Positions 745 through 5,161 of a stretch of 21,129 bases of DNA are shown here, piece after piece (position 1 is the stretch's first letter; the number at the start of each line of letters is the position of its first letter). The DNA is taken from the NCBI GenBank assembly GCA_963736115.1, contig CAVTNR010000016.1, positions 1 to 21,129 on the forward strand. Direction: 5' to 3'. The notes below the pieces were generated by a model. The model saw nothing but the letters and a program-made list of their open reading frames with translations. It made no database searches and was not told where the DNA came from. The position numbers and the translations under genes are program-made. Origin of the DNA: an uncultured bacterium. Its GTDB lineage: Bacteria > Zhuqueibacterota > QNDG01 > DTFT01.

Positions 745-852
745 TGCTAACGATGGTTGATGTGCGGACGGCAAAGGGATTTCTCGGATTGCACGCCCCT
801 CCAAGAAGTCAAGACTGATTAGGGCACCGTCCGCACGATTAACGGGTTATGA
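745..852 (-). repeat. attC site (108 bp)
   Basis: Minus strand: R'' TCATAAC (contains the TAA stop of the upstream gene), L'' AATCGTGC with extra C, L' GCACATC, R' GTTAGCA. Confidence 0.95.
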
Positions 853-1697
853 TCTCAAGGAATATTTCTCATCACTTTTATATAATTCTAATATGGCAAT
901 CTCCGGATAGCAATTAAATCGAACCGGATATATTGCCCAACCAATACCTCTACTTATAAATATATTAGTGGTACTTGTATGAATAAGACCACTTGTATAT
1001 TTTTTATTAACCACCGGTAAAATTGGTGGACCATAGAAGGGTATATTGACTTGCCCACCATGTGTATGACCTGATAATATTAAATCTATACGTGAATCAA
1101 ATTTGGTGTCTGCAGTATCGGGATTATGTGCGAGTAAAATTTTACAATCTTGTTCCGGAACATCGGCAAATGCCTTATCTGATTCCGAGCTTCGTCCTCC
1201 CATTGATCGCCGGCTCCACCAATCCAGATTCTTTTGTTTTTATATAATATCGGTCTTGCAGTATGTCTAACACATTGTCCGCTTTTTTTAAGCCAATAAA
1301 GTGATCTATCAAAATCACCCCAATGGTCATGATTACCTAATACACTATGTACGCCTAGATCAGCATGCAATTGTGATAAAATTGGCCAAACAATATTAAT
1401 TTGATTTGTGTTGTTCCTTTCATGAATATAATCACCAGTACAAACAATTAAATTTCCGTTAATCTGATTCGATCTTTGAATAACTGACTTGATCAATGAC
1501 TCCGGAACTAAAAATCCTAGATGCAAATCTGTTAGATGTACAATGCGGAAACCATTAAACTCTTCAGGTAAATTTGTAACCGGGATTTTATATGTATTTA
1601 TTAGGACTAAATATCTTTCAATAAAAATTGGATAGCTACATATCAACGCACCTATTCCACTACATATTCCAAGTTTTAAAAATCGTCTTCTATTCAT
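847..1697 (-). pseudogene. Calcineurin-like metallophosphoesterase (YkuE-like), frameshifted near 1180-1200 (cassette)
   Basis: N-terminal frame has MNRRRFLK, DLHLG, TGDYI, LGNHDH; C-terminal frame has LAHNPD, SGHTHGGQ, SRGIG..PVRFNCYPEI. The span is 851 nt, not a multiple of 3. True lesion or sequencing indel. Confidence 0.85.
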
Positions 1698-1725
1698 ATA
1701 ATTTTAAATTGCTATATTCAATAGA

Positions 1726-1832
1726 TCATAACGACAAGCATGAGCGTGCGGACTACGCGATTTTGCGGATTGCACAGACTCCAAGAAGCAACAATTGAGT
1801 AGGGCACCGTCCGCTCAATGCGTGGGTTCGGC
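1726..1832 (-). repeat. attC site (107 bp)
   Basis: Minus strand: R'' GCCGAAC, L'' CATTGAGC, L' GCTCATG, 6-nt spacer, R' GTTATGA; shares CGGATTGCAC and TAGGGCACCGTCCGC with the other copies. Confidence 0.9.
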
Positions 1833-1837
1833 GACCA

Positions 1838-2323
1838 TTAATACCATTTACCATTCCATTTTTTATATTCCAATATTCTTTTATTAATATAAACTCGAAT
1901 TCGTTTTGTGTTTAATATTTTAATAGTTTTTTTAATATCTTTTTGATCAAGAAGCTTTTTGATTTCGGCTATTTGAAAATCAATATTACCAGAACAGATA
2001 CTTTTTTCACTAATTGATAGGATAGAGATTTTATCAACATCCCAATCGGCCTCAGATGCTTGTAAGATGTAATAATTATCAACATTATTAGTCAGCCACA
2101 TAATTTTAGCCATTGCATAGATAGTCATCCAACCTTTTACTTCAATATATAGATATTTGTTATTCTTGGTTTTAATTCTGAAATCTACTCTATGATTTCT
2201 TTTTGAATTTGTTGCCCACGGATATGGTGGAGGAATTGGTATCATGCAATCATCATTATTTCGACTATAATTGATGTTATTTAACTTTAATTTCTTTTCG
2301 ATTGTTTCTTCTAACTTTGACAT
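1838..2323 (-). CDS. Putative PD-(D/E)xK nuclease, phage T7 endonuclease I-like (cassette)
   Basis: MSKLEETIEKKL...NHRVDF...YIEVKGW matches the SxLE / (P)DF / ExKG layout of this superfamily. ATG at 2323 follows an AGGG RBS-like motif. Confidence 0.65.
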   Translation of the reverse strand: MSKLEETIEKKLKLNNINYSRNNDDCMIPIPPPYPWATNSKRNHRVDFRIKTKNNKYLYIEVKGWMTIYAMAKIMWLTNNVDNYYILQASEADWDVDKISILSISEKSICSGNIDFQIAEIKKLLDQKDIKKTIKILNTKRIRVYINKRILEYKKWNGKWY

Positions 2324-2390
2324 GTTTACCCTATGAAAATAAATCAATGAGTACTCAATATTTCCTATTAAAATAATCTTTGCTTATACC

Positions 2391-2496
2391 GCCGAACAAA
2401 ATGATGTGCGGACGGCAAAGGGATATTTCGGATTGCACGCCCCTCCAAAAAGTCAAGACTGATTAGGGCACCGTCCGCACAATCTATGGGTTAGCG
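2391..2496 (-). repeat. attC site (106 bp)
   Basis: Minus strand: R'' CGCTAAC (contains the toxin TAA stop), L'' GATTGTGC, L' GCACATC, R' GTTCGGC; core has 3 mismatches to the attC at 745-852. Confidence 0.93.
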
Positions 2497-2748
2497 ATAG
2501 ATTTCTTTCCTATGACCAATTTTAATAACTGTAATTATCAGAACTGCATCATTTATTGAATAGATTATTCTATAATTACCAACTCTAATCCTATAATCTT
2601 CGCGATTAGTAAGCTTAATACTATCTTGAGGTCTAGGATTTAAAGATAAGGATTTAATTCTGTTTAATATTTTATATATATCTTTTTGAGGAATTGCGTT
2701 GAGTTCTTTTACGGCAGATTTTTTAAGTTCTACTTTATATTTTTCCAT
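2491..2748 (-). CDS. relE: Type II toxin, RelE/ParE family
   Basis: 85 aa basic protein with YKVELKKSAVKEL, NPRP, YRIRVGNYRIIYSI, KIGHRKEIYR; overlaps the upstream antitoxin by 14 nt. Confidence 0.92.
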   Translation of the reverse strand: MEKYKVELKKSAVKELNAIPQKDIYKILNRIKSLSLNPRPQDSIKLTNREDYRIRVGNYRIIYSINDAVLIITVIKIGHRKEIYR

Positions 2749-3035: not shown

Positions 3036-3047
3036 GATGTTTTATTT

Positions 3048-3154
3048 CGCTAACGATGGTCATCACTGCGCTGACGACGTTATTTCACGGCTTGCTCAGC
3101 GCATTTGCGGCCATACCAAAGTAGGATTCAGTCCACTCAAGCCGCGGGTTAGAG
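3048..3154 (-). repeat. attC site (107 bp), divergent, with poorly complementary arms
   Basis: Cores CTCTAAC / GTTAGCG at the family spacing; central motifs CGGCTTGCTCAGC and AAGTAGG align to the family, but the L-box arms do not pair well. Confidence 0.75.
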
Positions 3155-3203
3155 CCATATTTTATAGTAGCACATAATTAACTATAAACCCTTAAATGAA
3201 TAT

Positions 3204-3887: not shown

Positions 3888-3906
3888 TGAATTCTCCTAT
3901 TTAAGG

Positions 3907-4011
3907 CTCTAACGATGGTCGTCACGGGCGGGCATGATAGCTATCGGATTGCACAGCCTTCGGAAAGTATAAACTGAGTAGTGCACCGTCCCGTGGACGA
4001 CAGTGTTATGC
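3907..4011 (-). repeat. attC site (105 bp)
   Basis: Cores GCATAAC / GTTAGAG; plus (bottom) strand TCGTCACGGGCGG pairs with CCG[T]CCCGTG[G]ACGA, leaving the canonical extrahelical G and T. Confidence 0.93.
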
Positions 4012-4212
4012 GATTTTCCTTTTCATTGTCTCAAATGAAAATTTCTGTATATTTGCTTTCTCAGCAGCATGCTCGACAGTCATGCTCACCAAATTACCTT
4101 CTTCGTCAATGTCAATGTAGATATTTTCAGATATTTCTTTTGTCTCTATTATAGCTCTGTCTGAAAATTCAAACAAAGCCGTATCTGTATCTTCAAAGTA
4201 TTTTACAAGCAT
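4006..4212 (-). CDS. DUF2283 domain protein (putative antitoxin)
   Basis: 68 aa acidic protein: VKYFEDTDT, ETKEISENIYIDIDEEGNLVSMTVEHA; GGAGG RBS; stop codon lies inside R'' of the attC. Confidence 0.85.
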   Translation of the reverse strand: MLVKYFEDTDTALFEFSDRAIIETKEISENIYIDIDEEGNLVSMTVEHAAEKANIQKFSFETMKRKIA

Positions 4213-4226
4213 AAAATTGTCACCTC

Positions 4227-4466
4227 CTATTTATTGAAATTTCGGTCAAAAAAAGCATTATGAATGGTTTCCTTGTCGTTTAGGATTATTATTCGAAGAT
4301 ATTTATGCTGTTCTTCAATCCAAGTCCACCTTCGAATTCTACCGTCAGATTGTAGCTCTTCATGTATAGGATTATAGAATGCTTCCTTAATCCATTCTTC
4401 TTTTATGTCGTGTCGGTCCGATCTGTTCCGAGTATAATGGAAATATTGTGTATATTTCATTTTCAT
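4227..4466 (-). CDS. DUF4258-like small protein (putative RNase toxin partner of DUF2283)
   Basis: 79 aa: IKEEWI, QSDGRIRRW, KYLRII, ETIHNAFFDRNF; directly upstream of the DUF2283 gene in the same cassette. Start could be 4466 or 4460. Confidence 0.7.
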   Translation of the reverse strand: MKMKYTQYFHYTRNRSDRHDIKEEWIKEAFYNPIHEELQSDGRIRRWTWIEEQHKYLRIIILNDKETIHNAFFDRNFNK

Positions 4467-4473
4467 TTATCTC

Positions 4474-4492
4474 GCATAACCTATTATTAGAT
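4474..4492 (-). other. Putative attI recombination site
   Basis: Minus strand ATCTAAT-AATAG-GTTATGC: degenerate L box, 5-nt spacer and GTT core (same layout as attI1 CCCTAAA-ACAAA-GTT), complementary to R'' of the first cassette, with no attC stem behind it. Confidence 0.7.
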
Positions 4493-4532
4493 GGAATCTC
4501 AGTGATCAACCATGTTTCCAATACCAGTAATA

Positions 4533-4603
4533 TTTTTCCTAATACTGGGAAAAAGGTGGTTTTTTCCTAATAGTAGGAAAAGGATTTTCCTATTACTGGA
4601 AAA
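4533..4603. promoter_or_regulatory. Three tandem palindromes TTTTCC-N7/8-GGAAAA (operator-like)
   Basis: Copies at 4533-4554, 4562-4581 and 4585-4603, with similar spacers TAATACTG, TAATAGTA and TATTACT. Confidence 0.6.
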
Positions 4604-4857
4604 CGGTAACAGGTATCCATCTATGCTCACCAAGTCCCAAATGTTCATGTATAGAGAAATATTTCGGGACCATACCGATAATAGTACCCGAGGAAATGCG
4701 AGAATGTAAAGGTTTTTCAGGGGGGAAAGACCAAGGTTTGGCATGCCGAATAGAGGATATCCAGCCGAGTATTCCGATTTCCCGACATCGAACGGTATCA
4801 AATCCCCCCCCGTATCGATTGAAAGGAACACTTCAGGTTGAATAAATAATTGTTTTT

Positions 4858-4886
4858 AATATAAAATAACAAATAGAATAAATCAA
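4858..4886 (-). promoter_or_regulatory. Candidate cassette promoter (Pc)
   Basis: Minus strand TTGATT (4886-4881), N17, TATATT (4863-4858), pointing at the attI-like site. The AT-rich context lowers specificity. Confidence 0.45.
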
Positions 4887-4965
4887 GCACATTCTTCTTT
4901 AGTAACACCTTCCCCCCCAATTCCTGGGTCGCTGTAACCTTTGAATAAACCCGCATAAGAGCATT

Positions 4966-5067
4966 GAAACCGTTAAAACGGGTTCGGGAGTTTTTTCGAT
5001 GTCTAACCCACGGCTGAAGCCGTGGGCTACTGCCATGGGATACTCCCATGAGCCACTGCCGGTGGCT
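4966..5067. repeat. Cluster of four hairpins including a GTAG-type REP
   Basis: GAAACCGTT-AA-AACGGGTTC (4966-4985); minus strand GTAG-CCCACGGC-TTCA-GCCGTGGG (5030-5007); CATGGGA-TAC-TCCCATG (5034-5050); AGCCAC-N5-GTGGCT (5051-5067). Confidence 0.7.
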
Positions 5068-5161
5068 GGGATTTATGATACGGGATAATCCGGAAATAAC
5101 CGAATACAATGGATCAAACGTAAGTCTTCAGGATGGCGTCAACCATCAGTTCCATCCCGAA

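Follow-up and report, generated by a model that had tools for sequence, protein, structure and literature searches.

An integron cassette of an uncultured bacterium carries a small gene whose product, P0001, is probably an active DNA nuclease related to T7 endonuclease I. The gene lies at 1838–2323, on the minus strand, in the first 21,129 bases of contig C16 (CAVTNR010000016.1; assembly GCA_963736115.1), part of a genome of 3.34 Mb in 31 contigs that is 87% complete; this whole stretch of 21,129 bases is called the window in what follows. We have identified the gene as a real, intact, single-gene integron cassette. Profile comparisons indicate that the catalytic N-terminal half of P0001 shares ancestry with the phage enzyme, and P0001, well supported as a nuclease, would be a distant relative of it. 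The PD-(D/E)xK superfamily to which such enzymes belong is known; what appears to be new is a T7-endonuclease-I-like core joined to a new C-terminal module and carried on bacterial cassettes in one-gene and two-gene forms. That the cassette serves in phage defence is a more tentative proposal.

The nuclease gene and its cassette

The features on which the argument depends are the following:

1838–2323, minus strand: nuclease open reading frame (ORF) P0001, translated from the window; 161 amino acids, TAA stop at 1838–1840
1732–2396 (665 nucleotides), minus strand: nuclease gene cassette, from the TT of the upstream core GTTCGGCG, divided after its first G (2397–2390, minus-strand reading), to the G of its own R' core GTTATGA (1732–1726)
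1722–1836, minus strand: the cassette's own attC site (site C), with R'' core CGCCGAAC at 1833–1826, R' core GTTATGA and a GCGGACGG / CCGTCCGC-type stem between them
2383–2500, minus strand: attC site of the upstream ParE/RHH cassette, whose R' core is the recombination point where the nuclease cassette begins
2324–2396 (73 nucleotides), minus strand: 5' leader of the cassette

P0001 begins with MSKLEETIEKKL, and the motifs NHRVDF and IEVKGW occupy residues 43–48 and 60–65. The frame given by the ORF finder reaches back to a TTG at 2347, with the ATG at 2323 as an alternative start; we consider the ATG the likelier of the two because the relatives begin at MSKLE. The tail of the protein is basic, with 12 lysines or arginines among 36 residues (126–161) and an isoelectric point (pI) of 10.3. 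A phmmer search against 1.84 billion representative proteins found 61 at E≤1e-3, of which 7 reached E≤1e-10 and the best had an E of 2.4e-21 and 45% identity. Since this search finds 61 relatives, the ORF is not a chance frame, and by this sequence measure the family is real but rare, with 61 representatives among 1.84 billion. One of the matches, P0034, looks spurious. When ten relatives were looked up in protein clusters, these had 1–6 members and no name other than 'hypothetical protein', and a word look-up in sequencing runs gave two DNA runs with just 5% of the sampled words and listed no RNA run.

The cassette is defined by its flanks. Upstream of the gene stands the 8-mer GTTCGGCG, and its exact reverse complement is the R'' core CGCCGAAC, which begins 5 nucleotides past the nuclease stop codon. 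By eye, the same complementarity of cores extends across every cassette of the array; it marks the cassette unit but gives no orientation. Repeats of about 91 nucleotides are found at 3–93, 759–849, 1739–1829 and 2403–2493, and two further, diverged ones near 3044–3158 and 3903–4015, each repeat having a core that ends in AAC, a GCGGACGG / CCGTCCGC-type stem and a core that starts with GTT. Among the four main repeats, the attC site of the nuclease cassette has diverged furthest, with 62% identity to the reference copy; it scores 96.2 bits (E 8e-23) with covariance model R1, to whose training set it belonged. In attC sites, the position of the extra-helical base tells the top from the bottom strand. 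Read by eye in sites B and D only, this base lies on the R''/L'' arm, beside the 3' end of the ORF (in B it is a G on the plus strand), and the minus strand is therefore the top strand; that all six cassettes of the array carry their ORFs on the minus strand argues for the same orientation.

No second ORF of at least 40 amino acids was found by the ORF finder within 1732–2396, so the cassette contains no methyltransferase or antitoxin partner. A scan of the coding strand of the leader (2324–2396) revealed no promoter-like site or terminator, although it used the sigma-70 consensus only and is uninformative for other promoter types. What a first-pass annotation had seen in the letters alone is confirmed. 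It had placed at 1838..2323 a gene with the motifs SKLEETIEKKL, NHRVDF and IEVKGW, and both position and motifs are exact in the translation of the minus strand; the basic and probably helical tail that it described agrees with the composition given above and with the two C-terminal helices of the model presented below; the lack of a methyltransferase or antitoxin partner is borne out by the ORF content; and the assignment to an integron cassette agrees with the attC repeats and with the exact complementarity of GTTCGGCG and CGCCGAAC.

Relationship to T7 endonuclease I and predicted fold

For the analysis of conservation we built an alignment, A1, from the query and 38 of the 61 phmmer matches, these being near full-length, with the partial and much longer ones left out. 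In A1, residues D47, E61, G64, M66 and W94 are invariant, and K63, T67, Q88, Q117, E120 and R141 are at least 90% conserved. A second set comprised 56 non-redundant proteins taken from genomic loci (described in the next section), in which E5 is kept in 54, D47 in 55, Q88 in 53, W94 in 53, Q117 in 54, E120 in 52 and R141 in 52; E61, K63, G64, M66 and T67 are not counted as evidence in this set because they were fixed by the search pattern. Judged from these alignments, P0001 keeps all four of the predicted catalytic residues, E5, D47 and the pair E61-x-K63, and the basic helical hairpin at its C-terminus has conserved residues of its own, Q117, E120 and R141.

The link with T7 endonuclease I emerges when the family is compared as a profile. 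Five sequences of the PDB were matched by the A1 profile at E≤10, four of them being T7 endonuclease I (best 1m0d, E 0.0082) and the fifth AbaSI (E 0.12), and the alignment with 1m0d pairs the S-x-LE, DF and E-x-KG motifs of the two proteins. With hhalign, A1 aligned to T7 gp3 (NC_001604) with a probability of 93.3% and an E of 2.8e-7 over 61 columns, covering T7 residues 15–78; the catalytic residues fall on the equivalents of E20, D55, E65 and K67 of T7 endonuclease I, at profile level and in the N-terminal half only. The SGLE / PDF / ETKG layout that the first-pass annotation had given for the T7 enzyme is therefore recovered, since the catalytic E, D and E-x-K align both in the profile search of the PDB and in hhalign. 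Phage protein families point in the same direction: phrog_9019, 'Holliday junction resolvase', is matched by 28 of the 39 members of A1 and phrog_945 by 16, and T7 gp3 itself belongs to phrog_945 (2.7e-65) and also matches phrog_9019 (1.4e-7). In addition, 11 of the 39 members match phrog_9084 'homing endonuclease', one matches PvuRts1I-like_N (6.7e-4) and one the NCBIfam Bax1 model (E 0.0015).

Searched alone against the PDB, P0001 has a sole match, the structure 3w1o of DMP12 (phmmer E 0.04). Residues 60–118 (window 1970–2146) locally resemble this Neisseria DNA-mimic protein, for which the Pfam family PF16779 gives an E of 0.0022, below its cut-off. We do not take this likeness as a sign of DNA mimicry, the resemblance being local and shared by only one of the 39 family members.

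An AlphaFold2 (AF2) model made with A1 has a mean predicted local distance difference test (pLDDT) of 92.9 and a predicted template modelling score (pTM) of 0.87. It contains a helix at 3–14, strands at 48–51 and 57–63, a helix at 68–80, a strand at 84–88 and helices at 106–125 and 130–157. The predicted fold is a PD-(D/E)xK core of the alpha-beta-beta-beta-alpha-beta type (about residues 1–100) followed by a basic two-helix C-terminal hairpin (106–157). E5 sits on helix 1 of the model, D47 where strand 2 begins and E61-x-K63 on strand 3. Nearly all of its fold neighbours are PD-(D/E)xK nucleases, and the structural comparison that the first-pass annotation had pointed to thus favours this fold. 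The Foldseek list is led by Bax1 (E 0.014), T7 endonuclease I (1m0d_A, E 0.034), Cas4, Hjc and RecU. With VIA-align, the best neighbours are Bax1 (Z 7.3 over 101 residues, root-mean-square deviation (rmsd) 3.3, 21% identity) and I-Bth0305I (Z 6.8–7.3 over 89–91 residues), next come NGO0050 (Z 6.2) and Vsr (5.8), and PspGI, Hjc, AbaSI, VRR-NUC and TnsA follow with a Z of 4.5–5.7. Among the predicted viral structures of BFVD, the best are a phage 'Endonuclease' (5.7e-5) and the 'Endonuclease I' of Vibrio phage ICP2 (2.9e-3), followed by weaker matches to endonuclease I proteins, with TM-scores of 0.3–0.45. An Atlas search, whose scores were all below 0.9 and which we take as a lead only, returned nearest clusters that are 80–100% viral, some of them with Phage_endo_I, DUF1064 or TnsA-like domains.

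Relatives, their loci and the surroundings of the array

Loci encoding relatives were collected by pattern scans with the E-x-KG-x-MT block and confirmed by tblastn. They number 75: 13 in species genomes, distributed over Bacteroidota, Ignavibacteriota, Myxococcota, Thermodesulfobacteriota and Lentisphaerota, 1 in viral contigs and 61 in metagenomes. The ORF is complete in 68 of the 75; the removal of 3 with internal stops leaves 65, which together with the window form 56 clusters at 90% identity. The internal stop codons, in L008, L017 and L053, may mark pseudogenes or sequencing errors. The tree divides into a group of 39 rows that includes the window and a group of 17 rows. Within the former, the window pairs with L023 (support 97/96), which is the locus of the best phmmer match and likewise a single-gene cassette; beyond this pair its placement is unsure because of its long branch (1.56). 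The group of 17 rows forms a distant branch (L016, L019, L020, L063–L068, L072–L078; L069–L071, L081) that is found in Prevotella-type operons with PEGA, Sel1 and outer-membrane proteins, and also on T4-like phage contigs beside a Gp23 capsid gene.

The relatives recur as integron cassettes in several phyla. The 8-mer flank test was positive in 7 of the 68 loci, against 30 of 1338 permuted controls. Clear single-gene cassettes, recognized from core sites alone, are L010, L043 and L023, and pairs of A/T-rich flanks make L009, L036, L044 and L079 uncertain cassettes. A wider, 9-mer flank test had no control and was trusted only where the same exact 9-mer recurs, as occurs in L014/L046, L026 and L028, to which we add L039 with one mismatch. 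The first-pass annotation had called an attC array an odd home for such a nuclease, a remark that loses much of its force because the relatives recur as cassettes.

A second arrangement is seen in a clade of 8 rows (support 98/95), in 7 of which an Exo_endo_phos gene starts 9–12 nucleotides past the nuclease stop codon or overlaps the nuclease gene. The partner is confirmed by Pfam in L014, L026, L028 and L041; in L024, L034 and L039 the call rests on shared N-terminal sequence. In L014/L046, L026 and L028, the 9-mer GTTACCTGC upstream of the nuclease gene returns as GCAGGTAAC 733–745 nucleotides past the nuclease stop, beyond the partner gene, and L039 has the same GTTACCTGC/GCAGGTAAC pair with one mismatch. 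The two genes would thus form one two-gene cassette in L014/L046, L026, L028 and L039, a candidate two-nuclease cassette. The description of the nuclease as 'stand-alone' in the first-pass annotation consequently applies to the cassette of the window, and not to this clade of relatives. As for fusions of the protein itself, the family may have none: a Pfam scan of seven longer or partial phmmer matches and of P0020 and P0054 revealed no informative fusion partner, and word-index searches returned nothing with the query alone and, as weak evidence, no longer fused forms with A1.

In four non-redundant loci (L013, L036, L054 and L050) the nuclease gene is adjoined by a gene for a full-length Mrr type IV restriction protein, with both Mrr_N and Mrr_cat and a match to the PADLOC model mREase_IV at about 1e-55. 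The Mrr gene lies 49–91 nucleotides from the nuclease gene, on its upstream side in three loci and on its downstream side in the other. Three of the Mrr-linked loci are present in the tree, each in a separate clade; a further locus, L040, resembles L036 but is cut. Other neighbours of the relatives include Cas2, a Csm6-like protein, RloB, an SNF2 helicase, a DAC-domain protein and HNH, as well as the toxin-antitoxin genes ParE, HEPN/MNT, Gp49-HTH and MazF. At many loci the neighbouring genes are ordinary metabolic ones, and one copy lies between two histidine-biosynthesis genes.

In the window itself, the neighbouring cassettes encode a PRiA4_ORF3-like protein, a split metallophosphoesterase, a ParE/RHH pair (2491–2968), an isochorismatase-family protein and a DUF2283 pair (4006–4466). 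The metallophosphoesterase cassette (847–1697, minus strand) is divided into two overlapping ORFs, 1086–1697 and 847–1203, by a frameshift or an assembly error, and the ParE toxin ORF (2491–2748, minus strand) takes its TAA stop from the R'' core CGCTAAC of its attC site (2490–2496). As seen in the window, the array consists of clustered attC sites with no integrase and is cut by the end of the contig: a TIGR02249 search found no integrase in the window or on C16, and the array runs off the contig start. The only integron integrase of the genome to exceed the NCBIfam cut-off for TIGR02249 is at C12:324986–325908 (345 bits) and has one in-frame TGA. Covariance model R1, built from the six sites of the window, found 17 sites in the genome, 11 of them new, on C12, C14, C8 and C22. 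The new ones, among them six at C12:109339–113063 and three at C14:86403–91507, lie in low-GC islands, and several contig ends are low-GC islands as well. An Rfam scan of the window gave no match to an attC family and two sub-threshold chance matches.

The G+C content of the window is 29–39% from base 1 to about 5000 and 51–66% beyond. On the host side of the array (4470–5160), three palindromic repeats of 21 nucleotides at 4533–4604 are followed by a non-coding stretch; a sub-threshold match to the Acido-Lenti-1 RNA (E 0.021) lies at 5007–5036, and the step in G+C from about 35% to about 60% falls near 5000.

Proposed function and comparison with known systems

P0001 would cut DNA as a metal-dependent PD-(D/E)xK endonuclease that uses divalent ions. 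By analogy with T7 endonuclease I, Hjc and other small enzymes of the fold, it would act as a homodimer, and the basic hairpin may help to hold the DNA and perhaps pair the subunits. The enzyme could plausibly recognise DNA by its shape, at branches, junctions or distortions, and not by a long sequence. As the likeliest substrate we consider branched or distorted DNA, because of the best sequence relative and of the structure-specific fold neighbours Bax1, Hjc and RecU, and structure-specific cutting, argued from these analogies, is a prospect to which we give somewhat less than even weight. The cell may retain the cassette for the attack of its nuclease on incoming phage or plasmid DNA, which the enzyme would carry out by itself in the window and together with an Exo_endo_phos enzyme in the sister clade; we consider this less likely than not. 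The same caution applies to an anti-phage role in general, which is suggested by context, namely the cassette setting and the links with Mrr and Exo_endo_phos, and which we advance as a tentative proposal. More speculative still is the full version of this idea, in which P0001, a minimal T7-endonuclease-I-like enzyme, would found a new anti-phage family that is spread on cassettes across phyla in one-gene and two-gene forms and uses a phage-type activity against phages, cutting the branched intermediates that invading DNA forms in replication and recombination. Bolder, and less probable, is the idea that the enzyme acts on folded attC hairpins or junctions and so tunes the traffic of cassettes.

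Several observations weigh against a T7-related nuclease with a part in defence: (i) P0001 alone matches no Pfam family above the cut-off (best DMP12, E 0.0022, and SfsA, E 0.042), no PHROG at E≤0.01 and none of the families of PADLOC-DB 2.0 (2023) at E≤10. (ii) The homology with T7 endonuclease I is confined to the first 75 residues or so, ending at residue 78 of the 149 of the T7 protein, and the C-terminal half is unrelated to that enzyme. The Pfam model Phage_endo_I (PF05367) has no match in the query at E≤10 and matches one of the 39 members at E 0.067. Because this model is unmatched and the C-terminal half differs, P0001 is not a member of Phage_endo_I. Nor did tblastn find any relative in 50,697 phage records. 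(iii) Foldseek against the PDB gives no match at E≤1e-3, all Z values of VIA-align are below 8, which the tool rates as middling, and the solved structures nearest to the model are those of Bax1 and a homing endonuclease rather than of T7 endonuclease I. The chains of the T7 enzyme are absent among the best 50 VIA-align rows and superpose in Foldseek at an rmsd of about 21 Å; such a poor superposition would be expected if the crystal chains are domain-swapped, and according to PMC3424549 T7 endonuclease I exchanges its first helix and strand between chains. (iv) The neighbourhoods of the relatives vary widely and most lack a defence gene, and the defence-gene neighbours were counted without a background control and are not a measure of enrichment. 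When 41 relatives were compared with PADLOC, they gave weak matches only (best 5.7e-5), to nuclease domains of other systems, and the Exo_endo_phos partners gave no match. The first-pass annotation had proposed the gene as an anti-phage candidate; PADLOC offers no defence model for it, and the neighbourhoods of its homologues agree with the proposal in part, with Mrr and other defence-type genes at some loci and no defence gene at most.

What else could the gene be? The alternative that survives best, which we nevertheless judge improbable, is that a phage Holliday-junction resolvase or DNA-maturation nuclease has been captured and persists as neutral or weakly expressed cassette cargo without a role for the host. 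The nearest families are indeed phage ones (phrog_945, phrog_9019 and the phage endonucleases of BFVD), as are the nearest Atlas clusters, 80–100% viral at scores all below 0.9; the distant branch sits beside the Gp23 capsid gene on T4-like contigs, no sigma-70-like promoter is seen in the leader, and three relatives have internal stops. However, at least 51 of the 56 non-redundant copies retain the catalytic residues and those specific to the family, which argues for selection. Moreover, the branch to which the window belongs is bacterial and cassette-borne, with a relative on only one viral contig and in no phage record, and the C-terminal hairpin is not present in T7 endonuclease I.

That hairpin is central to a second alternative, to which we give slightly less credit: a modification-dependent (type IV-like) or sequence-reading restriction nuclease, in which the hairpin would read the DNA and duplexes rather than branches would be cut. 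The cassette has no methyltransferase, as expected of a type IV enzyme, and Mrr adjoins the gene in four non-redundant loci. AbaSI (E 0.12; Z 5.0) and PvuRts1I-like_N (one of 39 members, 6.7e-4) are weakly matched, and the weak PADLOC matches are to models of methyl-directed restriction endonucleases (REases). Yet all such matches are weak and fall on the shared nuclease core, and the best sequence relative is a junction-resolving enzyme. Modified bases are read by domains such as SRA, winged helix and Mrr_N; P0001 has no known reader domain, its extra part being merely a helical hairpin of 50 residues.

Still less likely is a toxic nuclease, the toxin half of an addiction module with its antidote elsewhere or absent, which would stabilise the array or work through abortive infection. 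Over-expressed T7 endonuclease I is toxic, which would suit such a role, and toxin-antitoxin cassettes occur nearby in the array (ParE/RHH at 2491–2968 and the DUF2283 pair at 4006–4466) as well as beside relatives (ParE, HEPN/MNT, Gp49-HTH, MazF). Against it, the cassette has no second ORF, no small partner is conserved across the 75 loci, and P0001 matched no toxin family in the Pfam and PADLOC scans. A selfish homing-type endonuclease that spreads its own cassette is very unlikely: the catalytic domain of I-Bth0305I ties for the best structural match (Z 6.8–7.3 over 89–91 residues) and 11 of the 39 members match phrog_9084 'homing endonuclease', but recombination between attC sites by IntI already explains the mobility, there is no intron, intein or target-site duplication context, and the motif of P0001 is the classical E/D/ExK, from which the catalytic motif of the I-Bth0305I family differs.

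We return to P0001 as a probable T7-endonuclease-I-related nuclease and to its possible place in defence. Integron cassettes now serve as libraries in which small defence genes are sought, and a rare, unnamed cassette family here gains a testable identity, with four catalytic residues, a family-specific basic hairpin and natural one-gene and two-gene forms. Should it protect against phages, a very small structure-specific nuclease would join the defence repertoire; should it not, the family would still show clearly how a nuclease core of phage type has been taken up by the mobile cassettes of bacteria. The enzyme could also find use as a compact reagent similar to T7 endonuclease I, and a swapped dimer with composite active sites, if it forms one, would tie it closely to that enzyme. 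Integron cassettes have been reported to carry defence systems (Kieffer et al. 2025, Darracq et al. 2025, as cited in bioRxiv 10.64898/2026.03.17.712381). The literature covered on Phage_endo_I/PF05367, which deals with neither defence nor integrons, and that covered on phage defence by integron cassettes make no mention of the family; the two 2025 Science studies may have included it among the genes that they assayed.

Comparison with known systems places P0001 as follows: (i) With T7 endonuclease I (PF05367; 1m0d, 2pfj) it shares the order and spacing of the catalytic residues, with E on helix 1, D before strand 2 and E-x-K-G on strand 3, as well as a small size, a basic C-terminus and matches to the same PHROG families. 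In contrast, the T7 enzyme is encoded by a phage gene whereas the gene of P0001 is bacterial and cassette-borne, and the C-terminal half of P0001 is its own conserved two-helix hairpin. (ii) The nuclease domain of Bax1, from the archaeal XPB-Bax1 pair (6p4w, 8gy8), is the best structural neighbour. Bax1 is a structure-specific PD-(D/E)xK nuclease, but a multi-domain one of about 370–480 residues that partners the XPB helicase, whereas P0001 has no helicase partner in its cassette. (iii) The catalytic domain of I-Bth0305I (3r3p) and the Vsr/DUF559 group have a compact core of the same topology; however, they match by fold only, with no sequence match at profile level, and their biology is intron homing and mismatch repair. 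(iv) The archaeal Hjc and bacterial RecU resolvases are, like P0001, small PD-(D/E)xK enzymes with the same core (Z 4.1–5.2), although their similarity is lower, there is no match at sequence level and they lack the C-terminal hairpin. (v) Finally, the cassette resembles the cassette-borne defence genes of Kieffer et al. and Darracq et al. (both 2025, as cited in bioRxiv 10.64898/2026.03.17.712381) in being a small, single-gene, nuclease-type cassette in an attC array.

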